NCBI GenBank assembly: GCA_944331805.1
Contig: CALVIS010000003.1
Location: 1 to 53,493 of the forward strand
DNA from: an uncultured Bacilli bacterium
GTDB lineage: Bacteria; Bacillota_I; Bacilli_A; RF39; UBA660
Direction: 5' to 3'
Length of the DNA: 53,493 nucleotides
The translations under genes were made by a program, and so were the position numbers. Of the stretch, positions 3,279 through 53,120 are shown piece after piece. A model generated the notes under the pieces. The model was not told the origin of the DNA and made no database searches. It saw nothing but the letters and a program-made list of their open reading frames with translations. The first letter of the stretch is position 1; every line of letters starts with the position of its first letter.

Positions 3279-6200
3279 CTATTCCACACTTTCTCTAACT
3301 AATCCATTCCAACGATATCTTTTAATACTTACAGTATCTGCTGTTAAAGGTTTAATAAGTTCACATATTGAAATATCTTTTATTTCTTTATAATCACACC
3401 ACAAAGCTTGACTTGTTAAGATATAATCTAAATCAAAACTTGCAAGGATTGCAAACATTTCTTCAATATTAACTTCATCTACACCTGCAAAGGCTTCATC
3501 TAAAGCGATTAATCTAGGAGATGAAGGTGCTGCACTATCTAATTTAGCATAGATACTTGCAAATAAAGGCACATACATAGTCTTTGCTTTCTCTCCTCCA
3601 CTAAAGACAGAAAATATCTTATCAGTTAATTCTCGTTTTTGATTACCATCTTTTTTATAAAAGAGTTTAAAAGTAAACCAATTACGATAATCTAAGATAT
3701 TAAAAATCATTTGGAAGTACGTTATATTATTAGTAAGCATAGACTCTTCTTCTCTTTTTATCTTAGATCTAAAATGCTTAATTAATCTATTAGTATCTTC
3801 AGGCTTTATAAAATTACTTGGCATCATAAATATCTCTACTAAATCTTTAGTATCCATCTCATCAAGAGCCTCTCCACTTTTAGGTTTCCAATCTAAGTAA
3901 AAAGATAAATTACTATTTTGTTGTTTTATTTCCATAATATTATTAATCTTTTTAACCCAATCTCTTGCTTCTATTATTTTCTCTTTAATCTTAGTCCCAA
4001 TAGTTCTAAGTAAAATATCTTCAAACAAATGTCTATCTTGTTCATTAAGATAAATCTTATCTGCTTCATAACTTTCTAATAAAGCATTAGAAAGTTCATA
4101 GATATTTAACTTCTTACCTTGATAACTAGTTAAAACATCTTGTCTTTTCGCATCGTTATATATATTAATAACTCTTGTTCTATCAGATACTTTATCACTA
4201 TAATGATTAATTAAATTATCTCTTTCATTAAATAAAACTACATCTTGAATATTATACTCTAATAATTCCTGACGATATTCATTAAATGAACGATAATAGT
4301 TCATAGTAACATCTTTCAAATCTTTAGTTTTAGCATCATTATTTCTTAAAAAGTTCTTAATAGTTTTAAAGTCTACTTCTAAATCTTTAACAACATAACC
4401 TAAATCTAGTTCTTCTTTTAAAATATTAGATAGTATTTCTAAAAAAATCTCTTCTTCTTTTTTCTGTTCTTCTAAAGACTTAAGTTGTTCTTCTTCACCT
4501 TTAAAGCTCTGTTCTAAAACACCTAATCTCTTTGATAAATTAGCACTCTTAAAAGGATAATCTTCAATAGTCTTTACGATTTTCTCTATTTTTTTACTAA
4601 GTTCAAGATACTCTTTAGTATTAAGAATCTTTAAAATAGTATTAAGTTCTATTTCTCGTTTTTTCTTATCATTAACTAAACTAGATATAGTAGCATACAC
4701 TTCATCATGATTAGTAGTTAAGTCATCTAATCTTTCTTTATTAGTCATTAATAATTCCTTTTTCTGATTTAATTTATCATAAAGAGCATTTAACTCTTTA
4801 GTAGTATCTAAAATATCTCTAATTACAACACTAGCTTTATCATAAGTTACAAGGTTAAGAGGAATATTACTTCGATATTTCTCTAATTCTTTAATAACCT
4901 CTTCAATTTGTTGTTGATACTTTCTAATTTCTTCTTCAAGTTCCTTTTCTTTATTATTAATAAAATCAAGTTCTAAATCTGTTTCTTTAATCTTAGCTGT
5001 AATTTCTTCTAATATTCTATTACTAGGAAATAATTTACTTTCATTATTTAAAGTATTTATAGAAGTATCTAATGTATCTAATTCAAGTTCTTTATTTCTA
5101 ATAACTTCTTTAATAGCATTAATCTTCTCTTTCTCTTCTTTTATAAGTAATTGATGTTCTTCTTTTCTTTTTAAAACTCCTATATATTTACTATTATAAT
5201 CACCTTTAATATTACCTTTAATAAAGTCAAAGTTATAATTATTTTCATTAATACTAATAACATCACTATCACTAGTACTAATAGATTCTAATATTGAAGT
5301 AATAAACTCATTACTAAAAACTTCATTAGGATATGCTTTTAAATATTTAGTCAAGTTATCTTTCTTTTTACTACTTTTCTTAAAGTAAGAAATATTCATA
5401 TTTTCTATCTTTCTTAAGTCTTCATCTCTAAATATCTTAGTATTTAAAATCCCTGATGAATATAGCACTTCTTCTAATTTATTTTTAGTATCATCATCTA
5501 TTCCTTCTTTAAATTCTACTACTTGATAAAGTGCAGCATAAGGAATATTTTCTTTATCTAAATAATCTATTGTCTTTCTAGTTAAATCATCTTCTTCTAG
5601 TTTTATCTCTTCCATTTCTAATAATTCTTTTAATAATAACTCTTCTTTACTTAACTTATCTTTCTCAGTTAAAAGTTCAGTCTTCTTAAAAGATACTTCT
5701 TCTAGTAATTTACTATACTTAATCTTATATATTTCTTCATACTTCTCTTTAGATTTTAAATAACCTTCACTACTATATTCATCTAAATAACTAGCAATTT
5801 CCTTCATATCATCACTTAATAAAATAAGAAATTTATTATTAGTTCTAATATTATTTAATGAAATAAAGAATAGTTCAAGTTCATTATCTAGTTCTTGATA
5901 AAAACCATCTCTTATCTTTTCTTTTTCTAAATAATCTGTTTTTAATTTTTCATATTCATTAGACTTAATATTTTGAGTCTCTAAAAGATTTCCTTTTCTT
6001 ATAAGTAGTTCTTTAGTCTTTTCTATTTCCTCTTTCTTAAAATTTATCTTTTCGATAATATAACTAACTTGAGTTTTCTCTTTTATAAAAGGAATTAAGT
6101 CTTTTAATTCATCAAAACTAATCTCATCTCCTAAATCACTTAAGTTAGTGATTAAATTAGTTATTTCTTTATCAAGGTTAGTAATATCATCTTCATTATC

Positions 6201-7316
6201 GTTTATTAAAGAAGTTATCTCACTCATCTTCTGTTTCAAATTATCAATTACTTCTTCTTCTTTAACAAGTCTTTCTTTAAGTATCTCTAACTCATTATCA
6301 AGTTCTACTTTTCTTTTACTTTTTTCTTCTAAATCAGTATTGTTTAAATGTTCTTTCTCCTCTTTAGCAGTATTAAATTCATCTAATAGTACTACATCTT
6401 CTTCTTTTAGTCTAGCAATCTCTTCTTCTAAACTAGTAATAGCATTAGTTTTCTCAGTAATTTTAACCTTTATATTTTCAAGAGCTTGGTACTCTTTATA
6501 ATAATTAGTCGCTTTAGCAAGTAATACTGCTTCATTATAATTTTTAAAGACTTTAGTAAAGTTAGAAAGAATATCAATGTTATTTTTTAACTCATTAATC
6601 TTTTCTTTAGTAGCATTTAAATTTTCAATAGTATCAGATAAAGGCCTTAAAGTCTCATCTGATAAAGGTGGTAAAACTTCATTTAATACTTCCATTAATT
6701 TAGTAGGCTTATACTCTTTAGATAATTTTGGACTCCTAATTTGTAAGATAATATTGATAAATTCATCAAAAGTTTCTATATTTCTAAATTTAAATAAATT
6801 ATCATTAACTAACTTTTTATATTCTTTAGCAGTTTCTACTAAATTATTAGAAACACCTAAAGCACTTCTTAACTCTAATTTAGTTAAAGGCGTCTTAGTA
6901 AAACCATCTTTTGTTTTATATAAGAAGAAATCTTTTCCTACTCTTCTACCATCTTTTAAGATAAAACCAAAGAAGTCAGTAGGCTTACCCCTTCTCGCTC
7001 TAAGTCCCATACCAATAGTAATATATCTATCTTCTAAATTATTATAAAACTCCATATATAAATAACCAGTAGAATCATCTTTTTCATTATTTTCTCCAAG
7101 TAAATAATATTCTATATGTTTGTCAGTAGAACCAAAAGTATCTAATCTTTTAGGAGATTTATTACCATCTAATATTAAGGGAATAAATGATTGCATAGTA
7201 ACAGACTTTCCTGATCCATTTTGTCCTCTAAGTAAAAGTTTACCATCATAAAAATTAAATACTTCATCATCATATAACCAAAAGTTTATAAGTCCCATTC
7301 TTGTAGGTTTAAACAT
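3279..7316 (-). CDS. jetC: Wadjet JetC SMC-like ATPase (TIGR02680 family)
   Basis: Walker A GQNGSGKS, long coiled coil, signature FSGGE, Walker B IALDEAF; start moved to ATG 7316 behind GGAGGTG. Confidence 0.9.
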   Translation of the reverse strand: MFKPTRMGLINFWLYDDEVFNFYDGKLLLRGQNGSGKSVTMQSFIPLILDGNKSPKRLDTFGSTDKHIEYYLLGENNEKDDSTGYLYMEFYNNLEDRYITIGMGLRARRGKPTDFFGFILKDGRRVGKDFFLYKTKDGFTKTPLTKLELRSALGVSNNLVETAKEYKKLVNDNLFKFRNIETFDEFINIILQIRSPKLSKEYKPTKLMEVLNEVLPPLSDETLRPLSDTIENLNATKEKINELKNNIDILSNFTKVFKNYNEAVLLAKATNYYKEYQALENIKVKITEKTNAITSLEEEIARLKEEDVVLLDEFNTAKEEKEHLNNTDLEEKSKRKVELDNELEILKERLVKEEEVIDNLKQKMSEITSLINDNEDDITNLDKEITNLITNLSDLGDEISFDELKDLIPFIKEKTQVSYIIEKINFKKEEIEKTKELLIRKGNLLETQNIKSNEYEKLKTDYLEKEKIRDGFYQELDNELELFFISLNNIRTNNKFLILLSDDMKEIASYLDEYSSEGYLKSKEKYEEIYKIKYSKLLEEVSFKKTELLTEKDKLSKEELLLKELLEMEEIKLEEDDLTRKTIDYLDKENIPYAALYQVVEFKEGIDDDTKNKLEEVLYSSGILNTKIFRDEDLRKIENMNISYFKKSSKKKDNLTKYLKAYPNEVFSNEFITSILESISTSDSDVISINENNYNFDFIKGNIKGDYNSKYIGVLKRKEEHQLLIKEEKEKINAIKEVIRNKELELDTLDTSINTLNNESKLFPSNRILEEITAKIKETDLELDFINNKEKELEEEIRKYQQQIEEVIKELEKYRSNIPLNLVTYDKASVVIRDILDTTKELNALYDKLNQKKELLMTNKERLDDLTTNHDEVYATISSLVNDKKKREIELNTILKILNTKEYLELSKKIEKIVKTIEDYPFKSANLSKRLGVLEQSFKGEEEQLKSLEEQKKEEEIFLEILSNILKEELDLGYVVKDLEVDFKTIKNFLRNNDAKTKDLKDVTMNYYRSFNEYRQELLEYNIQDVVLFNERDNLINHYSDKVSDRTRVINIYNDAKRQDVLTSYQGKKLNIYELSNALLESYEADKIYLNEQDRHLFEDILLRTIGTKIKEKIIEARDWVKKINNIMEIKQQNSNLSFYLDWKPKSGEALDEMDTKDLVEIFMMPSNFIKPEDTNRLIKHFRSKIKREEESMLTNNITYFQMIFNILDYRNWFTFKLFYKKDGNQKRELTDKIFSVFSGGEKAKTMYVPLFASIYAKLDSAAPSSPRLIALDEAFAGVDEVNIEEMFAILASFDLDYILTSQALWCDYKEIKDISICELIKPLTADTVSIKRYRWNGLVRESVE

Positions 7317-8487
7317 CTTCTTCACCTCCAAATAAATCCATCTGTTTTGTATTATCTTTTATAAGTTTAGCATTAAATCTAGCGATAGTTGGTAATACTA
7401 AATAAGTATTATCCTCTTCTTTTAAGAAAGAATACTCTATCATATAATTTACTACTTCATCAAAGAATTTCTGTAAAGATAAATTAAGATACTGTTTACT
7501 TAAATACTCTTTATTATTAGTCTTAATGTCTTTAATAATCATTTCTAAACTTTCTTTTTTTATTCGTCCTATCTCTTTATCATCAAGAGATATTTCTTTA
7601 TTTTTAATCATTTCATAAAGTTTAGTATTTATCATTAAAACTATATCTGTAATTTTCTTATTATTAGGAAAATTATCTTTAGAATTACTTGTTTCATATT
7701 CATAAAGAAAAGCCATATTCTTTGTAACTTCAATTTCGAAGTTTAAATTAGAAAACTCATTTTCTAAATAACCACGCATCTTCTTAATATAATCAATTTC
7801 TGCTTCTGTTAAGTTATAAGAAAAAACAGCAGGAGTAAATAAAAGATTACGATAAACTTTATATCTTCTAACATCACCTTTTTCTAAAGTTTGATATTTC
7901 CATTCATCATTTAAAAAATCATTAGTATCTTCTATTTCAAAAATATCGTTTGTAAATAATCGCATTACATAGTTAGCAAGACCTGTTACTTCATATAAAG
8001 CTTCAGCATTTTGATCATCTTTAAAGCTTATCTTTTCAGCATCTTTAACCTTTATTACTGATATTTCTGTTAAGAAATCTATTACTCTAACTAAACTTTG
8101 TCTATCACTTCTTAAATTCCAATCTGGTATTGTCTCAAGATTTAAGGTAACCGCGGTATTTTTAACATAATCTATTAGTGATGATAAAACAAAGACTTCA
8201 CCTCTAGTTTTATCTTCTAAAAATAATAGAATTATACACAAAATGACATAGTCTTGTTTTGAATTAAAGTTATCTATTCCTAGATTATCAACTCTACTAC
8301 TAGGAATCTTTTCAAGTTTAACAAATCTATCATGAATAATTAATTTACTACCAAGAGTCTTAGTAACAAAGTCTTTAATAATATTTTGTTTTCTTTTAAC
8401 GTCATAGTATAAGTCAGGATTATCTTCTTTTAAAATCCAAAAGTTAGTTAAAAGTTCTCTTATTTCATTTTCAATTGATTCCATCAT
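7309..8487 (-). CDS. jetB: Wadjet JetB (TIGR02678 / DUF2398 family)
   Basis: Size and position between the jetA-like and SMC genes, overlapping both; LEKIP and RYKVYRNLLFTPAV segments typical of the family; start at 8487 or 8484 after GAAGGGGG. Confidence 0.8.
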   Translation of the reverse strand: MMESIENEIRELLTNFWILKEDNPDLYYDVKRKQNIIKDFVTKTLGSKLIIHDRFVKLEKIPSSRVDNLGIDNFNSKQDYVILCIILLFLEDKTRGEVFVLSSLIDYVKNTAVTLNLETIPDWNLRSDRQSLVRVIDFLTEISVIKVKDAEKISFKDDQNAEALYEVTGLANYVMRLFTNDIFEIEDTNDFLNDEWKYQTLEKGDVRRYKVYRNLLFTPAVFSYNLTEAEIDYIKKMRGYLENEFSNLNFEIEVTKNMAFLYEYETSNSKDNFPNNKKITDIVLMINTKLYEMIKNKEISLDDKEIGRIKKESLEMIIKDIKTNNKEYLSKQYLNLSLQKFFDEVVNYMIEYSFLKEEDNTYLVLPTIARFNAKLIKDNTKQMDLFGGEEDV

Positions 8488-32460: not shown

Positions 32461-33360
32461 TCAATATTTACTTACTATCTTATTGAATATTGGTACATTA
32501 CCTTTATAACTCTTTGGAGAGATAGGACTAGGATGATAAATAGGTAATATCTTATAACCATTTATTTCGTATATGTTACCAACCACTTCTGAAAATTTAT
32601 TAAATTTAAAATTAAGTAAATTTCTAGTTGGAAATTCTCCTAAGGTAATAACTAATTTAGGATTTAATATTCTTAATTGTTCTAACATTATACTTTTACA
32701 ATTACTAGAGCAAGTTTTTAAATTTTTTCTTTCATGTGGATAACACTTAACTGATTCTAAAAATGTAGTTTCAAAAATATCTCTATCAATAATATCAAAT
32801 AGTTTTTGCAATACAACACCACTAGGTAACACTTTATCATTTACATCAGTCCATAGTTTATGACTTTTTCTCCAACCATTATTTGCAGGTGCTTCGCCAA
32901 CTAAAACTATGTCATTATCTTTTCCAAGAAATACTGTTGCAGCATTAGGAAATTTATCAACTAATTCACTACAAGATTTACATGAATATACTTTTTCATC
33001 TACTTGTTTTAGTAATTCTTTTACTAATCTTGCTTTTAATATTTTATATCTATTTTTTGTATCTTCTGTTAATATATTTTTTCTATCTATAATTTGATAA
33101 TCTTTATAATCCATTTCATGATTAAACTGACTTGAAGTTAAATCTATAATTTTGTCCTCTATTAAATTAAAATAATGACTAATTCCATCAACATAAATTT
33201 TACAAATAACTCCACCAAAATAATCATTAATGATTAGAGATGTTATTGCACACATACCAAAGCATTTATTATTATCATTCCAATCATCTTGAACTTTAGG
33301 ATAACATAAATCTTTTGAGTAACATTCTAATAATGCTTTTTGTATATTTTCAATATTCAC
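32461..33360 (-). CDS. YunG-like domain fused to uracil-DNA glycosylase (family 4-like)
   Basis: N-terminal GMCAITSL...HYFN...DLT; C-terminal CKSC, VGEAP, VKCYP, C, HPSP; GTG start behind GAGGTG. Confidence 0.8.
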   Translation of the reverse strand: MNIENIQKALLECYSKDLCYPKVQDDWNDNNKCFGMCAITSLIINDYFGGVICKIYVDGISHYFNLIEDKIIDLTSSQFNHEMDYKDYQIIDRKNILTEDTKNRYKILKARLVKELLKQVDEKVYSCKSCSELVDKFPNAATVFLGKDNDIVLVGEAPANNGWRKSHKLWTDVNDKVLPSGVVLQKLFDIIDRDIFETTFLESVKCYPHERKNLKTCSSNCKSIMLEQLRILNPKLVITLGEFPTRNLLNFKFNKFSEVVGNIYEINGYKILPIYHPSPISPKSYKGNVPIFNKIVSKY

Positions 33361-33413
33361 AATAACACCTCGTTTCATTAAGTTTTAACTATAAATATTA
33401 TATCAAATAAAAT

Positions 33414-36125: not shown

Positions 36126-37865
<1,740 letters not shown>

Positions 37866-38483: not shown

Positions 38484-38560
38484 TGGGGCGGTATAAGGGA
38501 ATCGAACCCTTGCATACTGGTGCCACAAACCAGCGTGTTAACCACTTCACCAATACCGCC
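38484..38560 (-). tRNA. tRNA-His (GTG)
   Basis: Reverse complement GGCGGTATTGGTGAAGTGGTTAACACGCTGGTTTGTGGCACCAGTATGCAAGGGTTCGATTCCCTTATACCGCCCCA: cloverleaf, GTG anticodon, TTCGA loop, G-1, encoded CCA. Confidence 0.96.
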
Positions 38561-38729: not shown

Positions 38730-39119
38730 ATGTTACCAACAAGATTTTATTTTGATAATGCATTTGATCAATTATTTGGAAATGAAGGAAGTAAGATGAT
38801 GAATTGTGATATCTATGAAAAAGATAACACATACCATGTAGAAATGGATTTACCAGGATTTAAGAAAGAAGAAATTAAAGTAGAATGTAACAAAGGAAAC
38901 TTAGTTATAACTGCTGAAAAATCTGAAAACACAGAAGATAAAGATGAAGATAAAAAATATCTACGTCGTGAAAGAGTTTATGGTAAATACCAAAGAAGCT
39001 TCTATCTAGGAGATATTAAAGAAGATGCTATTGAAGCTAAATTCGATAATGGTACATTAAGTATTTCTATTCCAAAAATTGATGAAAATGAAAATAAAAG
39101 ACTTATTGATATAAAATAA
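38730..39119 (+). CDS. Small heat-shock protein (Hsp20/alpha-crystallin)
   Basis: DIYE, DLPGFKKEEI, RRERVYGKYQRSF, AKFDNGTLSISIPK; CIRCE upstream. Confidence 0.95.
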   Translation: MLPTRFYFDNAFDQLFGNEGSKMMNCDIYEKDNTYHVEMDLPGFKKEEIKVECNKGNLVITAEKSENTEDKDEDKKYLRRERVYGKYQRSFYLGDIKEDAIEAKFDNGTLSISIPKIDENENKRLIDIK

Positions 39120-39120
39120 T

Positions 39121-39148
39121 AAAAAGGCCAAGTTACTGGTCTTTTTTT
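39121..39148 (+). terminator. Bidirectional terminator between hsp20 and the convergent operon
   Basis: AAAAAGGCCA-N-TGGTCTTTTTTT. Confidence 0.6.
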
Positions 39149-39531
39149 ATATCCCAAAAATAGATAAACAAAGTATTTAAAATAATTCCTAATATTACTA
39201 AATCTATAATAATAAAATTAGTCTTAAAGTAATCATAATTTAGTGTATACATTAAACTATTGGCTCTATAATCTGTATATAATTTAACTACTATTATTCC
39301 TAAATAAAATGTTAATGCAAAAGAAATTAAATTATAACTAACTAATTCTTTATAGATATCTTTTCTACTAAGTACTGTAAATATATTAATTAAAACAAAC
39401 AAACTACACATAACAAGAAAAGTTATCCCAAATGCACCACAGTTAAATACTACATTTAATAGCAAACAAACAAATATAACAAAGAAAACTACAGAAATTA
39501 ATCTCAGATAATAAACTATTTTTTTAAGCAT
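39133..39531 (-). CDS. Membrane protein with about 4 TM helices
   Basis: Four hydrophobic segments; overlaps the stop of the upstream ATPase. Confidence 0.75.
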   Translation of the reverse strand: MLKKIVYYLRLISVVFFVIFVCLLLNVVFNCGAFGITFLVMCSLFVLINIFTVLSRKDIYKELVSYNLISFALTFYLGIIVVKLYTDYRANSLMYTLNYDYFKTNFIIIDLVILGIILNTLFIYFWDIKKDQ

Positions 39532-40456
39532 GTGTTAAACCTCTATCTAATCCATCCGCTATCTCATTCTTAAACTCTTCCTTAAATCTAGGAAGCTCTT
39601 TTTTAATAACATCAGGATAAACATTTTTAGTGTTTTCAATCGCTTTTTCTATATCAAAGATATTTACTTCTTTTCTATTATTATAAATAGCATAAGAAAA
39701 AGCTTGTTGTAAAATAGTTAGAGTTACATCAGGATATCTTGAACCTATTTCATATATTCTTCTATATTCACTAGTAAGATCTGTTAAAAAAGCCATAATC
39801 TTTTGTTTAACATAAGGATCATACATCAACTTAGCACCTGTTTTCTTTTCTATTTTAGGAAGAGTACCCATACAAATAGCAATAGTTTGTTCTCTTGTAG
39901 GTTCCTCTACTTCTACTTTTTGAAAACGTCTAACAAAAGCTTTATCTCTTAAAATATATTGTTCATACTCTTCAGTAGTAGTCGCCCCTATTACTTTAAT
40001 ATCTCCTCTATCAAGACCTGGTTTAAACATATTAGCAAAGTCAAGAGACTCACCCTTACTTCCCATTAAAGTATGAATCTCATCTATAAATAATATTAAG
40101 TTAGTATATTCTTTTAACTCATCTAAAAGTATCTGGATTTTACTTTCTCCTGTATCAGGATCTTCCCCAAGTAATGCTGACGTATTAACTTTAATAATCT
40201 GATAACCCTTTAAGGCATCAGGAACATTACCTAACTGAATCCGATAAGCAAGTCCTTCAACAATAGCAGTTTTACCAACACCAGGTTTACCTGTTAAAAT
40301 AGCAGACTTCTCAGGTGTAAGTAATATCAACACTAATTGTTTAATTTCTTCTTCTCTTCCAATAGCAGGATTAGTAATATATTCTTTTTCTGTAAAATTT
40401 TCTCCATAACTTTTTAATATACTAACTTTACTTTTTCTAATTAACTCATCATTCAT
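39524..40456 (-). CDS. Stand-alone ClpA/B-type AAA+ (NBD1) ATPase
   Basis: PAIGREEEI, Walker A GKPGVGKT, Walker B LFIDEIH, IGATTTEEY, DKAFVRRF. Confidence 0.85.
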   Translation of the reverse strand: MNDELIRKSKVSILKSYGENFTEKEYITNPAIGREEEIKQLVLILLTPEKSAILTGKPGVGKTAIVEGLAYRIQLGNVPDALKGYQIIKVNTSALLGEDPDTGESKIQILLDELKEYTNLILFIDEIHTLMGSKGESLDFANMFKPGLDRGDIKVIGATTTEEYEQYILRDKAFVRRFQKVEVEEPTREQTIAICMGTLPKIEKKTGAKLMYDPYVKQKIMAFLTDLTSEYRRIYEIGSRYPDVTLTILQQAFSYAIYNNRKEVNIFDIEKAIENTKNVYPDVIKKELPRFKEEFKNEIADGLDRGLTHA

Positions 40457-40497
40457 TCTTATCACCTTTACTTCTTTAGTATAACATAAATATTAAA

Positions 40498-42579: not shown

Positions 42580-42646
42580 ATCATCTATCCTTTCTATACT
42601 TAAATTTTATCATTACATTTTATTTAAGTAAAGATGAATTTAGAAG

Positions 42647-42674
42647 AAAAGAAGAACCCTATAATTGTTCTTCT
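42647..42674 (-). terminator. Terminator downstream of the Schlafen-like gene
   Basis: AGAAGAAC-N9-GTTCTTCT followed by TTT on the minus strand. Confidence 0.55.
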
Positions 42675-42752
42675 AATAACTTACTAATTATATTTATTAT
42701 CAAATAAAAACCTATAATAAAATCAATGTTTTTTTAATAGTTCTTATTATAA

Positions 42753-42772
42753 ATCAAATAACTATCAAATAA
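42753..42772. repeat. Left copy of 20-bp direct repeat ATCAAATAACTRTCAAATAA
   Basis: 19/20 identical to 44265-44284; built from two ATCAAATAA boxes with 11-bp period. Confidence 0.8.
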
Positions 42773-42773
42773 A

Positions 42774-44252
42774 TCATGCCCAGTATGGAAGGTAACTTTT
42801 ATATTTTCTAGACTCAGAATTAGGTTGATATTCCTTTATTACACCAGATAACACTGCATCGGCTAAAAGTCTTGAAGCAATTGCTGAATTCTTTTTTTCA
42901 ATATTAAATCTAGTACGTAAAGTTTCATTGGTCATTTTTTCGTTTGAAACATATTGCAAGCATGCATGTTGATAGCAAGCTCTAATTTTATCTTCTTTAC
43001 TCATCTCACTCAATTTTTTATACTCATATAAAATAACTTTTGTACCACTATCATATTCAATAAAATTAGGAGCTGGTAGCTGAAATAATTCTATAGATTT
43101 TATTGTTTTATCTATGCCACTACCTTTTTCTTCACACATATTAAATCTTCTCATAATGCTTGCTAGTTTTTCATTTCTAGAAATTGGATTATGGTCAATA
43201 AATCTATCAATATTAATTAGTGGTGAACCAGGATTTAAAATTTCAAGTCTGTCAGAGAACAATTCTATTAATATACTTGCCCCCTGAATGGTAAAATCTT
43301 GATGAATAACAGCATTAGCTATCAATTCTCTAAGTGCAATTTCAGGATACATCTTAATTTGTGAACGAAATGCTACTCCTATATGTTCATTTTGAGGAGT
43401 TAATAAATCTAAATTTTTTAAAATTTCTTCAAAACATAAAGCATATCCTTTATCATAATTTATTTCACGTATAGTCTCAAGTTTATTCTTTGATTTATAT
43501 TGAATTAATCTAATTGTTTTCCTTGAAATAGTTCTAAACTGATGAATATTCTTAGCAAATAAAATAGCTCCTAAATTTGTTATGGCAAGTTTACCATACA
43601 CTTTTTTCACAAAACCTTCTGATAAAAAATCTTCAATTAGTTTATCAATAGTATCTGGATATGGTAAATCTAATAATTTATAATAAGCTGTAACTTCTAA
43701 TAATTCTACTATATCATTTTTGTTTAATTTAGAAATTGCTATCTCATCTTCGAAAGATATTTTATTCAATTGATTCCATAATTTTTTCTCTTTTTCTTTA
43801 TAATCACATAACTTATGCTTTTGTTCACCTACTCTAATATAAGCAACTTTATCAAACTCTACTGGATAATTCTTAGCTTTATCTATTTCAATTATTAAAA
43901 TAGATTTATTTTCATATTCAACTTCATAAGCTTCGAACTCTATTTGCGGTTTTAATTTTCGATATATCCAATTATACAAAGGCTCGTTACCTTTCTTTGT
44001 GTTATAAAAATCAAAATTAGTACCTATAATATTTCTAGTTTTATTATCTATCCCATATACTAAATAAGCATGTTCTTTATTCCATAACGCTGCTGAATTA
44101 GACAAAGCTGAAATATATTCACCAATCATATGAGGATCATCATTATTCACTTTAAATTCAATCCATTCATTTTCTTTATTAAATTTTAATAATGATTTCA
44201 ATAAATCAATTAATTCATTTTTAGAAATTTTATATTCTTCTACATCATACAT
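42774..44252 (-). CDS. Schlafen/AlbA_2 domain + HATPase_c_4-like ATP-binding protein
   Basis: ENEWIEFK, ISALSN, LVYGIDN (Schlafen-like acidic residues); LRELIANAVIHQDF, NPG, SRNEKLA, EEKGSGI; C-terminal wHTH ending YLPYWA. Confidence 0.85.
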   Translation of the reverse strand: MYDVEEYKISKNELIDLLKSLLKFNKENEWIEFKVNNDDPHMIGEYISALSNSAALWNKEHAYLVYGIDNKTRNIIGTNFDFYNTKKGNEPLYNWIYRKLKPQIEFEAYEVEYENKSILIIEIDKAKNYPVEFDKVAYIRVGEQKHKLCDYKEKEKKLWNQLNKISFEDEIAISKLNKNDIVELLEVTAYYKLLDLPYPDTIDKLIEDFLSEGFVKKVYGKLAITNLGAILFAKNIHQFRTISRKTIRLIQYKSKNKLETIREINYDKGYALCFEEILKNLDLLTPQNEHIGVAFRSQIKMYPEIALRELIANAVIHQDFTIQGASILIELFSDRLEILNPGSPLINIDRFIDHNPISRNEKLASIMRRFNMCEEKGSGIDKTIKSIELFQLPAPNFIEYDSGTKVILYEYKKLSEMSKEDKIRACYQHACLQYVSNEKMTNETLRTRFNIEKKNSAIASRLLADAVLSGVIKEYQPNSESRKYKSYLPYWA

Positions 44253-44264
44253 AAATTTTCTCCT

Positions 44265-44284
44265 ATCAAATAACTGTCAAATAA
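44265..44284. repeat. Right copy of 20-bp direct repeat
   Basis: ATCAAATAACTGTCAAATAA adjacent to the RBS of the Schlafen-like gene. Confidence 0.8.
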
Positions 44285-44418
44285 GAATTTCCTTTATTTA
44301 AAAGGAAATTTTAGATATTTATTTATTTTTTTATATATTTATCAAATAAAATTGTACCAAAGAAAAACAAAAAAAGATATAATTTTTTTTAATCATATAT
44401 ATCTTTTAATATATTTTT

Positions 44419-46830
44419 CTACTCAATGCCAAGCTCTATTTTATTAATTATATAATTTTTATCTATTTCATTTATAGTTAAATTATTTATAAATAATGTT
44501 GCCTTAAAATCTTTTATTGAACTTTCTATCGCTTCTTTGATATCGTTTGAACACTCTAAATCCAATTCTTTTACTGGTGTTTTCAACGATAAGTTATTAC
44601 TAGATTTTTCACCTCTAACAGCACTAATTATTTCACACATTAAATCTCCGTTAGTTACTTCTTTATCAAATGAATAATCAAATTGTTTTATTTCCGTTAA
44701 ATGAATTGATTTATTATCATGATAAATTTCTTGATATATCTCTTCAGTTATATAAGGGAAGAATACACTAAAGTCTTGTAATAACTTATATAAAATCATA
44801 TAAACTGTTTTTTGTCCTGAATATCTTGCCTTTTCTCCAAACTCTTCTGGTCTGTATAATCTATGCTTAACTATCTCTATATAATTATCACAGAAATTCC
44901 AAAAGAATTTTTCTAATATATTTAATCCTAAACCAATTTCATAATTATCTAAATATTTAATATATTCTTTTTCCATTTTCATAAAATTTCCTAATATCCA
45001 TTTGTCAATATATTCAAAATCATTAAATTCTTTATCTTCATAATCCTGTAAATGCATCTCTATGAATTTAGAAACATTCCAAATCTTATTAACTAACTTC
45101 TTACCTCGTAATAAAGTTTCTTCACTAAATGTTATATCAGTTCCAAGTCTTCCAGAAGCAGCCCAATATCTAACTACATCTGCTGAATAACTGTTAATTA
45201 AATCTAATGGCTCTACTTTAGAGTTTCCTTTACTTTTACTAATTTTCTCTCCTTTATTAGCCATTGCAAAACCTGAAATCATAATATTATCCCATGGTCT
45301 TATACCAAAATGATAAAAACACTTAACAATAGTATAAAAATCCCATGTTCTAATTATATCTGAAGCGTTAGCCCTTAAACTCATTGGTTTTAAAATATCT
45401 TCATAATTATCTTTTTCACCATATTTCATATTTATTAGAGGTGTTACTGATGAGGTTGCCCATGTATCCATTACATCAGATTCTGGAACAAATTCCTTAC
45501 ATCCACATTTAGGACACTCCTTTTCTAATGGACTATCAGTAAGAGGATTAACTGGTAATTGTTCCTTTTTAGCAAATATTGGCTCACCACATTTCTTACA
45601 ATACCATACTGGAAATGGAACGCCAAAATATCTTTGACGAGATATACACCAATCCCAGGCAATATTATTTACCCATTCTTCATATCTATTATGCATGTGT
45701 GATGGATACCAATTGATTTCCTTACCAATTCTTAAAAAATCTTCTTTATGATTCATAATATCAATAAACCATTGGTTCATTACAGTATATTCTACTTCTC
45801 TACCACATCTTTCATGAGTTTGTACTTCATGCTCTAATTCTTCTATTTTTACTATATAACCTGCTTCTTGTAAATCTTCGACAATCTTACCTCTCGCTTC
45901 CTTTATTTTCATTCCTCCATAATTAGGAATAGAATCTATTATTCTTCCATCATCAGTAAAAATGTATTTTAAAGGTAAATTATATTTTTTCCACCATTCA
46001 ATATCTGTCCCGTCCCCAAAAGTACAACACATAACAATGCCTGTTCCTTTATCTATTGCAACTTTTTCATCTGCCATAATAGGTACTTCTACATCTATTA
46101 CAGGTATATGTGCAGTTTTATCAATTAAATGTTTATGTTCTTCATCATTTGGATTTACAAAAACACTTACAATTGCTGGTAATAATTCAGGACGAGTTGT
46201 TGCAATAGTAAACTTTTCGCCATCCTCTACTGTTTCAAAATTCACATAATTAAATGTTGTTTTTATAGTTTTTGTTTCAAGTTCTGCTTGGGCTATTGAA
46301 GTTAAACATTCATTACACCATAAAGCAGGACTTTCTTTATGATAACAATGTCCTTTTTCTATTAAATCAAGAAATGAAGCCTGACTAATTTTAATAGTAG
46401 ACGGACTTACCGTTTTATAGTGCATACTCCAATCAGTACTAACACCAAGACGAGAAAATAAATTTTGAAATTCACTTTCATATTTATCAGTAGTTTCATA
46501 GCATAAAGCTGAAAACTTTTCTCTACCCATTTCATGAGCTTTCTTACCTTGTTCTTTTTCAACTAATCTTTCACTTGGAAGACCATTATCATCAAAACCA
46601 AATGGATAAAATACATTATATCCTCTTATTCTTTTATATCTTGCAATCATTTCTGCTTGTGAATAAGAAAATATATGACCAATATGAATTTTACCATTAA
46701 CTGTTGGAGGTGGAGTATCTATAGAATATATTTTCCTTTTATCAGGAACAAATTCATAAATTTTATTTTCTTTCCAATAATTTAACCATTTTTGTTCTTT
46801 TTCTAAAGCATTGTATTTTTTATCTAACAT
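44419..46830 (-). CDS. valS: Valyl-tRNA synthetase, type 2 (archaeal-like)
   Basis: IDTPPPTVNG, HIGH, GFDDNGLPSER, GTGIVMCCTFGD, WCISRQRYFGVPFP, KISKS; no C-terminal coiled coil; Val T-box upstream. Confidence 0.9.
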   Translation of the reverse strand: MLDKKYNALEKEQKWLNYWKENKIYEFVPDKRKIYSIDTPPPTVNGKIHIGHIFSYSQAEMIARYKRIRGYNVFYPFGFDDNGLPSERLVEKEQGKKAHEMGREKFSALCYETTDKYESEFQNLFSRLGVSTDWSMHYKTVSPSTIKISQASFLDLIEKGHCYHKESPALWCNECLTSIAQAELETKTIKTTFNYVNFETVEDGEKFTIATTRPELLPAIVSVFVNPNDEEHKHLIDKTAHIPVIDVEVPIMADEKVAIDKGTGIVMCCTFGDGTDIEWWKKYNLPLKYIFTDDGRIIDSIPNYGGMKIKEARGKIVEDLQEAGYIVKIEELEHEVQTHERCGREVEYTVMNQWFIDIMNHKEDFLRIGKEINWYPSHMHNRYEEWVNNIAWDWCISRQRYFGVPFPVWYCKKCGEPIFAKKEQLPVNPLTDSPLEKECPKCGCKEFVPESDVMDTWATSSVTPLINMKYGEKDNYEDILKPMSLRANASDIIRTWDFYTIVKCFYHFGIRPWDNIMISGFAMANKGEKISKSKGNSKVEPLDLINSYSADVVRYWAASGRLGTDITFSEETLLRGKKLVNKIWNVSKFIEMHLQDYEDKEFNDFEYIDKWILGNFMKMEKEYIKYLDNYEIGLGLNILEKFFWNFCDNYIEIVKHRLYRPEEFGEKARYSGQKTVYMILYKLLQDFSVFFPYITEEIYQEIYHDNKSIHLTEIKQFDYSFDKEVTNGDLMCEIISAVRGEKSSNNLSLKTPVKELDLECSNDIKEAIESSIKDFKATLFINNLTINEIDKNYIINKIELGIE

Positions 46831-46937: not shown

Positions 46938-47161
46938 AAAAGACGAGCAACTATCCAAAGGACGAATTGCTCGTGGTACCACCTTAATTTATAGTATTTC
47001 TACTATCTTAATTCCTTTAATGCAGGAATACACCATATCTTACTATTATTTCAGATATAAAACTCCCAAGCTACCTTCAATTACTCTTCGTTAAGAAAGG
47101 CTTTCAGCCAGTGGCCCTTCATTTCTAATAACTACTAACTAATCTACTCCTCTTGTTCTTA
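46938..47161 (-). promoter_or_regulatory. T-box riboswitch, Val (GUA specifier), transcriptional terminator type
   Basis: AGTA motif, GCTGAAA loop, specifier GAAG-GTA-GC, T-box AATTAAGGTGGTACCACG, terminator ACGAGCAATT...AGTTGCTCGTCTTTT. Confidence 0.9.
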
Positions 47162-47171
47162 GTATTTATAT

Positions 47172-49709
47172 TTACAATTGTTCTTCTAATAACTTAAGCT
47201 TAGCTTCTTCTTCTTTTAATTTCTCTCTATCAAGGTCAACTATATTCTTAGGTGCTTTATTAACATAGTTTTCATTACTAAGTAATTTCTTACGTCTTTC
47301 GATAGAGTCTTTTAACTTCTTAATATCTGCTTCCAACTCTTCTTTATTAACTTCATTTTTAAAGAAATAAGTAATATCAATTAAACTAGATTTATAGTTA
47401 ATAGACTGATAATCTTCTAAAGGCTCTTTAATTATAATATCATCAGTAATCTTTAATTGTGACTTATAGATATATTCTAAATCACTATTAGTACTAAATA
47501 TTACTAAATCATCTTTTTTAATATTATTAGTAGCCTTTAAATTTCTTATCTCTCTTAAATCAACTATTACTTTAGATATTTCTTCTGCTTCCTTATCAAA
47601 TACAGTCTCACTATCATACTTAGGATAAGTACTAATTACAATAGATTCACTATCTTTAAATGGTAACATCTGATAAATCTCTTCTGTTACATAAGGCATA
47701 AATGGATAAAGAAGCTTTAATATAGTTGTTAAAACATCAAGCAAAACACTCTTAGTTGTATCATTCATATTCGCTTTACTTAACTCTATATAGTTATCAC
47801 AAAAGTCTTCCCAAATAAACTTATATAACATATTACCAACATTATGGAAGTCATAACTATCCATATTTTTAATAACATCTTTTATTAAGTTATTTTTTAA
47901 AGTTAAAATCCATTTATCTGCTTTACTTAAATTCTGATAATCATATCCTGCTGTTTTCATATCTTCAAGATTCATTAATACATAACGAGAAGCATTCCAT
48001 AACTTATTAATAAAGTTCCAAGTAGATTTAACTTTCTCTTCATCATAACGCAAATCTGTTCCAGGAGCAGTATTAGTAGTTAAGAAAAATCTAAGACTAT
48101 CCGCACCATACTTATCAATAACATCCATTGGGTCTACTCCATTACCTAAAGACTTACTCATCTTACGTCCTTCTTTATCACGAATAAGTCCATGGATAAG
48201 ACAATCTTTAAATGGTCTTTTACCAGTAAACTCTAAACCTTGGAAAGTCATACGATTAACCCAGAATGGAATAATATCATAACCAGTTACTAAGACATTA
48301 TTAGGATAATATCTTTTAAATAACTCTGTCTCTTCTGGCCAACCTAGTGTTGAAAATGGCCATAATGCAGATGAAAACCAAGTATCTAGAACATCTTCAT
48401 CTTGTACCCAGCCATCACCCTCTGGCGCTTCCATTCCAACATATACTTCATCATCTTTATACCAAGCAGGTATTCTATGTCCCCACCATAATTGACGAGA
48501 TATACACCAGTCATAAGTAATTTCCATCCAGTGATTCATTGTCTTTTCATAACGTTCTGGCACAAAGTTTACTTTAGTATCTTTATTCTTTTGATTTTCA
48601 AGAACTCTATCGGCAAGGGGTCTCATCTTAACAAACCATTGTTTAGATAAAGTTGGCTCAACTACGGCATCACTTCTCTCACTATGTCCAACATTATGAG
48701 TCATCTCTTCAATACCAATTAATAAGTCTTGTTTCTTTAAATCTTCTACTAATTTCTCTCTACACTCTTCTCTAGTCATTCCCTCATAACCAAGAGCATT
48801 CTCATTCATAGTAGCATCCAAGTTCATTACCACAACCCGAGGTAAGTTATGTCTTAGCCCTACTTCATAGTCGTTGGGGTCGTGTGCTGGAGTAATTTTT
48901 ACGATACCTGAGCCAAAGTCTGGGTCTGCATGAATATCACCAACAATTGGTATTTCTTTATTAACAATAGGAAGAATTACAGTCTTACCAATTAAATGTT
49001 TATATCTATCATCAGAAGGATTAACAGCAACTGCAGTATCACCAAATAAAGTTTCAGGACGAGTAGTTGCAACATCTAAGTATTCATCAGTACCAGTTAT
49101 ATAATATTTAATATGATAAAATGCTCCCTTATCTTCTTTATAGATAACCTCTTCATTAGATAAAGCTGTCATTTGAACTGGATCCCAGTTAATAATTCTC
49201 TCTCCTCTATAAATTAAACCTTTCTCATAAAGTTTAACAAAAACATACCTAACCGCTTTACTAAGTCCTTCATCTAAAGTAAATCTTTCTTTAGTATAAT
49301 CAAGACTAAGTCCAAGTTTTGCCCATTGTTCATGAATAGTAGTAGCATATTCATCTTTCCAACTCCAAGCATGTTCTAACCATTCATCACGAGTTATCCC
49401 CCGAGGATTAATACCCATTTCTCTTAATCTCTTATCAACTTTAGCCTGGGTTGCAATACCAGCATGATCCATTCCTGGAACCCACAAAGCATCATAACCA
49501 TTCATTCTCTTATATCTAATTAAAATATCTTGTAAGGTTGTATCCCAAGCATGACCTAAATGTAGTTTACCTGTAACATTAGGTGGTGGTATTACGATAC
49601 AAAAAGGTTCTTTACTCTTATCTTTATCTCCTTTAAAATAACCCTTATTTACCCAATTATTATACTTATCTTTCTCTACTTCTTTATGATTATATTTTTT
49701 ATCTAACAT
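47172..49709 (-). CDS. valS: Valyl-tRNA synthetase, canonical bacterial type
   Basis: [55 protein letters not shown]-terminal coiled coil. Confidence 0.97.
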
Positions 49710-50590: not shown

Positions 50591-50826
50591 CCCTTAAAAT
50601 AAAAAATAACTATAACTTAAGGGCATAGACAATCTACGCTGTACCACCTTAATTTATAGTTATTAAACTATCTTATTACTTATAACGGCCTATCCCGTGG
50701 TAACTTACTACTTTTTCAGAAACCCTGCTCTATTCACTACCTTCCATATATCATATTGTTAATTTTCACCAACCATTAACTCTCTATAAATACTTTATAT
50801 GTACTCCTTGAATATCAATCGCATTT
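50591..50826 (-). promoter_or_regulatory. T-box riboswitch, Val (GUA specifier)
   Basis: GGAGTA, AGAGAG...GGTGAAA, specifier GGAAG-GTA-GT, T-box AATTAAGGTGGTACAGCG pairing with TGCCCTT. Confidence 0.88.
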
Positions 50827-50832
50827 AAATGT

Positions 50833-50929: not shown

Positions 50930-51940
50930 TTAACTACTATATGTAGTTTTAATTTTAACTTTTCCTTTAGTAGCTAGAAACTTTAAATATAGTACCACTG
51001 TCTCATTTCCAAGTTTATAACATAGCTGCTTAATCTCATTCGCACTTATCATACCATATTTATCATAAATAACTTCACTCATTTCCTTAAGTGCTTCTTC
51101 TTTTTTTTCTTTAGAAACATTCCATTTATTAATATCAAAAAGTATTGATATAGAACTTGATAATTTTAAAAATCTTATTTCTTTTTTAAATATATTATAT
51201 TTATTTATACTTTTAACATCTTCCTCTAATTTATCTACCACTTTAAAGATATCATATATTTTATCAGTTTTTTTATAAGTTCTAAAAGTTAAGCTTCCAT
51301 AATTATTTATCCTATAAAAATAATTAAAATAAGGTAAGATAACTGATTTGTCTGATTTCATAAGCATATAATGACTAAATGCTACATCTTCAAATAAAGT
51401 ATTTTCTAAAAAACGATAGTTGCCTATAAACTCTCTTTTAAATAATTTATTACAAGAAGAGGGACTTTCATTAATAACTTGTTCTTTACCACTAGCATTT
51501 GTAGGATTATATACTATTGGTTCACTTCTTAATACTACGTCATTTTTTAAATCTATATCATCCATTACATAAAGAAGCAGTACAGATACTAAAGGTGCAC
51601 TATTATTAACAGCAGCCTTATACATATCCTCATACATAGTATATCTAATATAATCATCACTATCAACAAAACCAATATATTCTCCTCTTGCAATATCAAG
51701 TCCTCTATTTCTAGATGCTCCTTGTCCTAAATTCTCTCTATTATGATAAACCTTAATATTATGATACTTCTTAGCATAATCCATTAAAATAAGTAGACTA
51801 TTATCAGTAGAACAATCATCTACAGCAATTATTTCTATATCTTTAAGTGTCTGATTAACTAAAGAATCAAGACAAGTCTTTAAATATTTTCCACTATTAT
51901 AAACTGGTACAATTATACTAACTTTTGGCAAAATAACCAC
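50930..51940 (-). CDS. Glycosyltransferase family 2
   Basis: VSIIVPVYN, VDDCSTD, GQGASRNRGL, GFVDSDD, FEDV; real start probably the TTG of LPKV. Confidence 0.92.
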   Translation of the reverse strand: MVILPKVSIIVPVYNSGKYLKTCLDSLVNQTLKDIEIIAVDDCSTDNSLLILMDYAKKYHNIKVYHNRENLGQGASRNRGLDIARGEYIGFVDSDDYIRYTMYEDMYKAAVNNSAPLVSVLLLYVMDDIDLKNDVVLRSEPIVYNPTNASGKEQVINESPSSCNKLFKREFIGNYRFLENTLFEDVAFSHYMLMKSDKSVILPYFNYFYRINNYGSLTFRTYKKTDKIYDIFKVVDKLEEDVKSINKYNIFKKEIRFLKLSSSISILFDINKWNVSKEKKEEALKEMSEVIYDKYGMISANEIKQLCYKLGNETVVLYLKFLATKGKVKIKTTYSS

Positions 51941-52112: not shown

Positions 52113-53120
52113 CTAATTTTTTAAAGATTTTATTTTTTCTTTTTCATTATCCAAGTAATTAGTATATTCATCACAAATATTAATACCACATTTTGATTGT
52201 AATAATGTAATATCAACACTATCTAAATTACCATATTTTTCTTCTATTAAATGAAACATTTTATCTTTAACTAATATTTTCTTCTCTTCATCTAAATCCC
52301 AATTATTTACTTCTTCTACTCTAATAAGGGAATAAGCAAGTTGTATAAGTTTTATCTCATCTTTAAATATCTCATATCTAGAACTATTTTTCATATCAAA
52401 ATCTAATCTATCTAATACTTTAAATATATCAGTTATATGACTATTTTCTCTATAATTTATAGAAGATACTCCTCTATTTATATCTCTTCTATAGAAATAA
52501 TTAATACTTGGAATAGTTACAACTTTAAATGCTTCCATATATTTTGTATAACTAAAAGGAATATCTTCAAATAAAGAATCTTCTACAAAATAAAAGTCTT
52601 TTAAAGTATCTCTTCTAAAAATCTTATTACAAACAGTAGGACTCTCAGAGATAACAAAAGACCTATCTTGGATAGGATTAATTATCTTTTCTTTACCTCT
52701 TGCTAAAAACTCTAAATCTATATTTGCATAACTATCATCTTTTACAAATATTATCTCAGTAGTAACAAGTTCTGGATAGTTATTGTTAACGAGAGCCTTA
52801 TACATATCCTCGTACATTGTACTTCTAACATAATCATCACTATCTACAAAGCCAATATACTCACCAGTTGCAAGCTTTAATCCTCTATTTCTAGAGGCAC
52901 CTTGACCTATATTTTTTTCATTATGGTAAACTTTTATATTAGGATATTTCCGAGCATAATCAAGTAAAATATTTAAACTATTATCGGTAGAGTTATCATC
53001 AATTGTAATTATTTCTATATCATCAAGAGTCTGTTTTACTAAACTATCAAGACAAGTAGAAACATACTCTTCTTCATTATAAACAGGTACTATTATACTT
53101 ATTTTAGGCAAAGTTATCAC
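52113..53120 (-). CDS. Glycosyltransferase family 2 (paralog)
   Basis: ISIIVPVYN, IDDNSTD, GQGASRNRGL, GFVDSDD, FEDI. Confidence 0.92.
   Translation of the reverse strand: MITLPKISIIVPVYNEEEYVSTCLDSLVKQTLDDIEIITIDDNSTDNSLNILLDYARKYPNIKVYHNEKNIGQGASRNRGLKLATGEYIGFVDSDDYVRSTMYEDMYKALVNNNYPELVTTEIIFVKDDSYANIDLEFLARGKEKIINPIQDRSFVISESPTVCNKIFRRDTLKDFYFVEDSLFEDIPFSYTKYMEAFKVVTIPSINYFYRRDINRGVSSINYRENSHITDIFKVLDRLDFDMKNSSRYEIFKDEIKLIQLAYSLIRVEEVNNWDLDEEKKILVKDKMFHLIEEKYGNLDSVDITLLQSKCGINICDEYTNYLDNEKEKIKSLKN

Follow-up and report, generated by a model that had tools for sequence, protein, structure and literature searches.

The window analysed here, by which we mean the whole stretch of 53,493 nt on contig CALVIS010000003.1 (GCA_944331805.1) from an uncultured Bacilli bacterium (RF39; UBA660), contains a Schlafen open reading frame (ORF) of 492 aa, assigned from Pfam matches and its translation, at 42774..44252 on the minus strand, the strand that also carries nearly every other gene of the window. 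Within 360 nt flanking this ORF lie six RTCAAATAA boxes, all on the plus strand, that is, TTATTTGAY on the gene strand. An earlier note on this DNA had listed the six boxes in one orientation together with a 19/20 direct repeat tightly bracketing the ORF, and had read the arrangement either as a single-gene mobile cassette or as an autoregulatory structure bound by the protein's own winged helix-turn-helix (wHTH). All six boxes are located where that note had placed them, and the bracketing repeat is likewise present, with a spacing of 1512 nt. Comparison with homologous loci establishes, at the level of sequence, that a cis-element accompanies genes of the Schlafen-GHKL-HTH type and that it is conserved and phased; its words also appear to vary with the recognition helix. 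Of the two earlier interpretations, the autoregulatory structure is therefore the one we favour, being supported by phased half-sites in distant homologues, invariant words and the apparent recognition-helix covariation, whereas the mobile cassette is unsupported.

In general, the element has two sites, often consisting of a tandem pair of half-sites at an 11-nt interval, and the sites lie 5-10 whole turns of about 11 nt from each other. The window holds two such elements, both read here on the minus strand. The upstream element begins with box U1 (44341..44349), a single half-site TTATTTGAT just downstream of the extended -10-like TGGTACAAT, continues through a palindrome, and ends with a double half-site of 11-nt period, boxes U2 (44276-44284; 65 nt from U1) and U3 (44265-44273), together 44265..44284; the end of U3 directly abuts the AGGAG ribosome-binding site (44260-44264). 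The downstream element opens with the double half-site 42753..42772, in which D1 (42764-42772) begins 1 nt past the TGA codon, at the position that the first repeat takes in homologues, and is followed by D2 (42753-42761), a spacer and the single half-site D3 (42699..42707), 65 nt after D1. The 20-nt direct repeat 42753-42772/44265-44284 is the pair of strong double half-sites of the two elements, D1D2 and U2U3. A candidate explanation in which each element descends from an ancient 65-nt tandem unit was rejected, there being no similarity outside the boxes (p 0.15-0.3).

The clustering of the boxes is robustly beyond chance. In dinucleotide shuffles of both intergenic regions, the mean was 0.031 boxes and three or more were reached in 0 of 2000, while any 8-mer attained six copies in 33 of 2000; over the whole window, 12 box matches compare with 6.2 expected from shuffles. 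Of 90 real genes whose spacers on both sides measure 80-350 nt, the Schlafen gene alone has a top flank 8-mer count of 6, the runner-up having 4; as a caveat, these AT-rich genomes often contain an 8-mer 5-6 times per 1.7 kb once coding DNA is included. Noncoding DNA amounting to 180 kb contains 17 boxes, 6 of them in the 360 nt flanking the Schlafen gene, and the background in the noncoding DNA of related genomes is 0.06 per kb, so that the local density, which the earlier note had left to be compared with the AT-rich background, exceeds that background about 270-fold. For the bracketing repeat, the best 20-mer match is 19, as against a shuffle maximum of 18 (300 shuffles), and a repeat of at least 19/20 brackets 3 of the 90 genes; since 19/20 matches recur in the background at about 4 per 2 Mb, this repeat taken alone is just moderately significant. 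It is the sole pair in the window at up to 3 mismatches, its 20-mer occurring just twice in 53 kb, and at the same tolerance the 20-mer is absent from 80 related loci totalling 983 kb. These loci come from a genome scan anchored on the 803-aa valine-tRNA ligase encoded upstream of the Schlafen gene, and represent uncultured gut Bacilli and Clostridia with ligases of 71-90% identity.

The encoded protein is, according to profile matches and a structural model, a prokaryotic Schlafen with a GHKL ATPase and a predicted C-terminal winged helix, the architecture called 'Schlatpase-HTH'. Pfam places SLFN_AlbA_2 (PF04326) at residues 27-147 (75.9 bits, cut-off 25.3) and the GHKL-type HATPase_c_4 (PF13749) at residues 324-408 (75.3 bits, cut-off 26). 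The catalytic motif Ex4(E/D)xK, as defined in PMC13056530, is intact (E27, E32, K34); E32 is present in 30/30 close homologues and E27 and K34 in 29/30, and the motif is kept in 16/16 distant homologues with an annotated N-terminus. The AlphaFold2 (AF2) model has a predicted local distance difference test score (pLDDT) of 71.7 and is good at 10-250 and 410-480 and poor (28-64) in the ATPase region. Foldseek returns 3lmm as the best match, followed by the N-domains of SLFN11/12/13/14/5 (probability 0.85-1.0) and by SAMD9, bearing out, together with the Pfam score, the earlier description of the gene as Schlafen-like. In the C-terminal tail (419-489), the model predicts three helices and two strands forming a small wing (pLDDT 65-87), for which Foldseek gives winged-helix matches of probability 0.97-0.99, yet with E about 0.1. 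PADLOC yields just weak partial matches, to Argonaute-associated models.

The family has thousands of members, with about 27 clusters 72-84% identical to the window protein before identity drops to about 50%. The close homologues all end in PYWA or PYWG, as the window protein does, and three N-terminal extensions among them cover just the ribosome-binding-site region. Some relatives (P0030, P0032-P0036 and P0078) are truncated or chimeric: one of 555 aa has a foreign signal-peptide-like N-terminus fused at residue ~107 and a differing C-terminal end, and others are N- or C-terminal halves of 277-347 aa; these look like decaying copies.

Homologues of 34-48% identity to the window protein are found on 129 plasmids and in 28 phage records. 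We compared 20 loci in this identity range (L081-L100: 16 from plasmids, 3 from phages or satellites and 1 from an E. coli chromosome), which become 17 when the near-identical L088/L089/L095 and L081/L098 are merged; the hosts are Pseudomonadota, Campylobacterota, Thermodesulfobacteriota and Cyanobacteriota, in addition to streptococcal satellites and a Burkholderia phage. Repeated words adjoin the gene in 20/20 of these loci, whose kind of flank the earlier note had proposed to examine for motifs. The repeats lie downstream in 15/20, the first starting 1-28 nt past the stop (usually 1-14) and the second 66-110 nt further on, and upstream in 5/20; they are one-sided in all 20, L090 having an extra weak third copy (15/18) upstream. 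Each repeat consists in most loci of two half-sites 11 nt apart, the same shape as in the window, as illustrated by TTGCTTGATCGTTGCTTGA in Providencia, TTTGATCGGGTTTTGAT in roseobacters, Cereibacter and phage Musica, and TATGTGACTGGTATGTGAT in Desulfosarcina. The word TTATTTGAT is common to the window and to Burkholderia/Cupriavidus, despite the GC-rich DNA of the latter. In the hsdS-X-hsdR loci (X being the Schlafen gene), GTGTTTTAACGCAAA in L090 and a two-mismatch variant of it in L097 are repeated 66 nt apart. The streptococcal satellites carry GAATTTACTTGGAAAATAAA twice upstream, 55 nt apart, the two sites flanking, by eye, a promoter-like TTAACA-16-TAGAAT on both sides, and in three loci of the Rhizobium type GGATAAAA is common to two or three sites ahead of the gene, at distances of 65-66 and 109-110 nt. 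Apart from the weak third copy in L090, the word of each locus is confined to the element positions in the stretch read. A fixed criterion, namely a direct repeat of at least 16/18 within 260 nt after the stop, is passed by 9/20 loci versus 3/250 control ORFs.

Several of these loci are part of defence operons, with the arrangements hsdM-X-hsdS in L082, hsdS-X-hsdR in L090 and L097, and X-hsdR in L084; in L085, the homologue lies between a DUF1156 protein and a phospholipase D (PLD) anti-phage protein. Downstream of the stop, the Burkholderia loci L086 and L093 have a first half-site and then a conserved word CGATATCGCAAC, and the spacer of phage Musica (L083) contains the palindromic TTGCGATATCGCAA; either of these may be the site of a second factor.

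The distances between sites are phased with the DNA helix. Counting the two 65-nt distances of the window, 20/21 site-to-site distances deviate by no more than 1 nt from a multiple of 11; the best-fitting period is 11.0 (R 0.91), a value that 0 of 5000 random sets equal, and 33/38 core offsets lie in residues 10, 0 or 1 modulo 11. Pairs of related loci moreover reveal footprints. Between L088 and L091, whose proteins are 80% identical, the sites are 17/17 and 18/18 identical within a diverged spacer; L086 and L093 (85%) keep 21-22 nt and 22/23 identical; and the words are also kept between L090 and L097 (62%). Furthermore, the class of word tracks the start of the third, or recognition, helix of the C-terminal tail, with four word classes corresponding to four helix types. 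KNSAIASR in the window and QNSAMASR/QNSATASR in Burkholderia/Cupriavidus go with the shared TTATTTGAT, and other helix types go with other words.

Taken together, these observations suggest that the boxes are helically phased operator half-sites, probably bound by the protein's own HTH, which would regulate the Schlafen gene itself or the genes downstream. The Schlafen protein is the most economical binder, because the Schlafen-GHKL-HTH gene is the only one common to all 20 loci and the window. As a plausible mechanism, the C-terminal winged helix would read the half-sites, and oligomers would hold several such helices on one face of the DNA, thereby bridging the two sites. Binding at the upstream element of the window, in the satellites and in the Rhizobium homologues might then repress or gate the gene's own expression, while a downstream element could control read-through, or a promoter in the spacer, into hsdS, hsdR, the PLD gene and others. 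A bolder form of this proposal, to which we give only a modest chance, is that Schlafen-GHKL-HTH proteins, the most frequent Schlafens of bacteria, do not act as freely diffusing sensors but as oligomers parked on their own element of four half-sites along one helix face, its sites 5-10 turns apart, occupancy silencing the tRNase and gating hsdR, hsdS or PLD until a phage cue, such as competing DNA, an ATP-driven rearrangement or a loss of supercoiling, releases the nuclease. If so, the cis-element would be part of the defence system, and clones without it would misbehave.

Several points weigh against the self-binding interpretation. The E. coli element is 2 nt off phase, at 97 nt. The covariation of word and helix is descriptive, as kin share both, and does not prove co-evolution. 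The loci compared are a non-random sample, namely the top and spread matches of three collections (20 of 73 full-length plasmid and phage matches plus E. coli), and L083, L086, L087, L093, L094, L097 and the Rhizobium trio fail the fixed criterion, their elements having been recognised by shared words, pairwise conservation or eye. In the C-terminal tail of the window protein, no Pfam HTH family is found at E<=5, and the wHTH is predicted from the AF2 model and the weak Foldseek matches. Finally, several Proteobacteria have no close gene after the downstream element, so that pure regulation of the next gene fails there and cannot be the whole story.

The boxes could also be real and be bound by another factor, such as a nucleoid protein, a protein resembling an excisionase or a recombination directionality factor (RDF), the arm-binding domain of an integrase, or a regulator belonging to an adjacent defence system. 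RDFs and repressors of the P2 type typically use direct repeats spaced by roughly one turn of the helix (10.1101/784983, PMC1904268), and integrase genes lie near 5/20 loci. In the other 15, however, no integrase is encoded within the stretch read, the Schlafen-GHKL-HTH gene remains the sole gene shared by the 20 loci and the window, and the word classes track the recognition helix of the Schlafen protein itself, all of which makes a foreign binder unlikely.

We consider it no likelier that the repeats work at the RNA level, in the 5' leader or 3' untranslated region of the mRNA, either as targets of the Schlafen RNase or of an RNA-binding domain, or as signals for processing or stability between cistrons. 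All boxes are on the transcribed strand inside the probable transcript, relatives are named 'RNA-binding domain-containing protein' in the source records, and the N-terminal domain has a nuclease fold. Against this, a spacing by integral turns of about 11 nt across 55-110 nt would be expected of one face of duplex DNA and not of single-stranded RNA, and the satellite sites bracket the promoter-like sequence, meaning that the first of them would not be transcribed. Rfam matches no family in the flanks of the Schlafen gene, and a spacer hairpin common to the homologues is not general, z falling below -1 in 4/15 spacers, which lack a common fold.

The mobile cassette of the earlier note fares worse and appears quite improbable. 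It would take the 20-nt repeats as junction or att duplications and the palindrome and an 11-6-11 sequence as cores, the gene being moved in trans by a tyrosine/Xer recombinase. Besides the tight bracketing of the ORF, several features are in line with mobility: the gene is patchy, with 0/80 related loci having a Schlafen gene beside the valine-tRNA ligase gene; the family is carried by plasmids, phages and satellites; and an outer 23/24 repeat encloses the Schlafen and ligase genes. In those 80 loci, no Schlafen, PepSY or other window gene is nearby, and the DNA downstream of the ligase is unrelated. Copies of the three adjacent window proteins also come from separate contigs, the 100% identical ligase from one of 8148 nt, the 100% identical Schlafen protein from one of 1836 nt, from which alone it is known, and the 99% identical PepSY protein from one of 8075 nt. 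The match lists of the three proteins have no contig of equal size in common, a hint of assembly breaks to either side of the Schlafen gene, which strain-level presence or absence might explain. The two cores are, however, unlike each other, and the dyad of the 11-6-11 sequence is at background level. No recombinase is adjacent, as the earlier note had correctly stated, the only one in the window being of the large serine type and 5 kb away (36126-37862). In the homologues, both repeats are on the same side of the gene and therefore cannot be cassette ends, and a host recombinase site would not be expected to have words that persist from phylum to phylum and appear to change along with the wHTH of the protein. 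For annotation, it follows that a tight repeat-gene-repeat layout need not mean mobility. Lastly, chance or neutral slippage producing functionless repeats in AT-rich spacers is hardly credible: although repeated 8-mers are common in these genomes and 19/20 matches are present in the background, against it stand the roughly 270-fold local box density, the six copies in this gene alone among 90 and the same architecture in 20/20 homologue loci.

Of the two core-like sequences that the earlier note had seen, the palindrome is confirmed as an inverted repeat, and the symmetry of the other is at background level. The palindrome (44286..44310, read on the minus strand) has perfect 10-5-10 symmetry and lies between U1 and U2, in the upstream element's spacer. 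As RNA, it would fold into a hairpin with a 10-bp stem containing 2 G-C pairs (-9.5 kcal/mol together with the next small stem; z -5.75 for the spacer), followed by the U-rich stretch CUUAUUUG formed by boxes U2/U3. The hairpin is not reported by a terminator scan, which requires at least 3 G-C pairs; it may resemble a terminator or an attenuator, or the palindrome may be a second operator. The 'dif-like core' of 11-6-11 form (42707..42734, no strand assigned) has 6/11 dyad matches, a degree of symmetry that 20-27% of the positions in these spacers attain, and no significant fold (z -0.5). The two sequences agree at 13/24-25 positions (shuffle p about 0.4), and the 11-6-11 sequence has no support as a recombination site.

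The extended -10-like TGGTACAAT (44351..44359, minus strand) was recognised by eye and is a candidate promoter of the Schlafen gene; it is absent from the output of the consensus scan, for which a -35 is required. That scan returns 28 promoter-like sites versus 27.8 in shuffles, showing no excess. The possibility that the boxes themselves serve as promoter -35 elements (TTGAYA) was rejected, inspection by eye giving no fitting -10 at 16-18 nt. The sole other intergenic box of the window, at 33402-33410 within TTTTATTTGATATAAT, overlaps an extended -10-like TGATATAAT ahead of the ORF 32461-33378.

Two hairpins delimit the region. One at 42641..42674 (minus strand), GAAGAAC...GTTCTTC followed by UUUUCUUCU (-11.2 kcal/mol, z -2.4), is the probable terminator of the Schlafen transcript. 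The other, at 44372..44407 (minus strand), is an A/U-rich hairpin with a U-run after the stop codon 44419-44421 of the upstream gene (-7.4 kcal/mol, z -1.7) and is the probable terminator of that valine-tRNA ligase gene.

The domain order, intact motif and vicinity to defence genes agree with those of the HisKinase-HTH prokaryotic Schlafens (pSlfns) of Perez Taboada et al. 2026 (PMC13056530) and of the 'Schlatpase' proteins in the preprint 10.64898/2026.05.29.728809. HisKinase fusions make up 34.0% of pSlfns, HisKinase-HTH, at 19.2%, being the second commonest architecture (PMC13056530). According to 10.64898/2026.05.29.728809, GHKL is present in 58.6% of 103,533 Schlafen proteins and an HTH in more than 90% of 'Schlatpase' tails, and GHKL- and ATP-driven tetramers are described for RzAgo, a Schlafen-Argonaute relative. 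In neither source did a text search bring up repeats beside the gene, operators or a DNA-binding role of the tail, and we found no description of the element in the main texts of the literature searched on prokaryotic Schlafens and direct-repeat operators. The HisKinase fusions that were assayed, the only ones of this type tested to date, gave no defence against a coliphage panel and had been cloned with just 100-150 nt of upstream sequence (PMC13056530); because the element lies downstream of the stop in most Proteobacteria, such upstream-only constructs omit it. More than half of bacterial Schlafens are GHKL fusions, most of them ending in an HTH (10.64898/2026.05.29.728809). The phased element offers that HTH a concrete, testable target, and suggests that Schlafen-GHKL-HTH proteins may recognise specific DNA sequences and control their own genes or defence genes nearby.

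The repressors of the P2 family and Apl of phage 186 likewise use direct, not inverted, half-sites about 11 nt apart that are read cooperatively by HTH proteins. Here, unlike in those operators, two such sites are 5-10 turns apart, usually starting at the stop codon of the presumed binder, and that binder would be a nuclease-ATPase of 490 aa instead of a small repressor.

PrrC is a latent tRNA-directed anticodon nuclease whose gene is embedded in a type Ic restriction-modification operon, and the homologues between hsdS and hsdR (L090/L097), between hsdM and hsdS (L082) and before hsdR (L084) occupy a comparable operon position. The folds are unrelated, however, the window copy lies outside a restriction-modification operon, and we know of no DNA element for PrrC. 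BrxR and CapW are small dedicated wHTH regulators beside defence genes that bind inverted repeats upstream of the operon. The resemblance consists in a winged-helix protein encoded beside defence genes and in repeats at the start of the operon to be controlled, whereas in the present case the helix is part of the effector and the sites are direct repeats in phase. Integron cassettes and Xer-dependent dif modules are single genes without their own recombinase that need two like sites at their ends; the cores here are unlike, and the homologues carry both repeats on one side.

Upstream of the Schlafen gene lie two valine-tRNA ligase genes in tandem, a PRK13208-type gene (NCBIfam) of 803 aa (44419-46830), which is the direct neighbour, preceded by the canonical valS of 845 aa (47172-49709). 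Each has a T-box leader, at 46955-47169 and 50616-50828, respectively, with no terminator between the 845-aa valS and the second T-box; the gene order is the same in L078. The PRK13208-type valS is itself tandemly duplicated in the close relatives L013, L015, L017, L074 and L077 (about 3190-5500 and 6001-8409) and also in L014, as seen in numerous collinear DNA matches of 19-20/20 that are offset by about 2812-2819. Downstream of the Schlafen gene are a PepSY protein gene, preceded by a promoter-like TTTACT-17-TAAAAT site, and then a DAO-Rieske oxidoreductase gene.

The outer direct repeat, 47176-47199/42663-42686, matches at 23/24 positions, 21 of them in an exact run, and between its copies lie the T-box, the 803-aa valS and the Schlafen gene. 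It consists of the last codons of the 845-aa valS (KLLEEQL plus stop), which recur 4513 nt downstream in frame with a stop, the downstream copy forming the 5' arm of the terminator hairpin behind the Schlafen gene. In simulations, 0-1.3% of windows contain an exact repeat of 21 nt within 6 kb. The downstream copy may be the original valS 3' end and terminator, displaced following an insertion.

A large defence island occupies 107-37862 of the window. It comprises a four-gene DUF2397/DUF2398/SbcC-like/DUF3323+DUF2399 (JetD_C-like) set, GmrSD, a full type 1 bacteriophage exclusion (BREX) system (BrxA, BrxB, BrxC, PglX-like methylase, PglZ, BrxL) and a Fic protein, and ends with the large serine recombinase (36126-37862) beside tRNA-His (38484-38559). 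Between the island and the Schlafen region, a 132-aa ORF without a family assignment (38730-39119 region) precedes a 313-aa ORF (39133-40465 region), which matches the first AAA domain of ClpA/ClpB alone, far below cut-offs, and is possibly a fragment; a divergent Hsp20 gene adjoins. Other repeats accompany genes in this and related genomes. Two family-2 glycosyltransferase paralogues of the window stand in tandem (50930-51940 and 52113-53120) and share 19/20 DNA segments at an offset of 1180, and in a related metagenome-assembled genome (L004) a 317-aa ORF lies between direct repeats of ~80-100 nt (2818-2900 and 4031-4114), 1213 nt apart.

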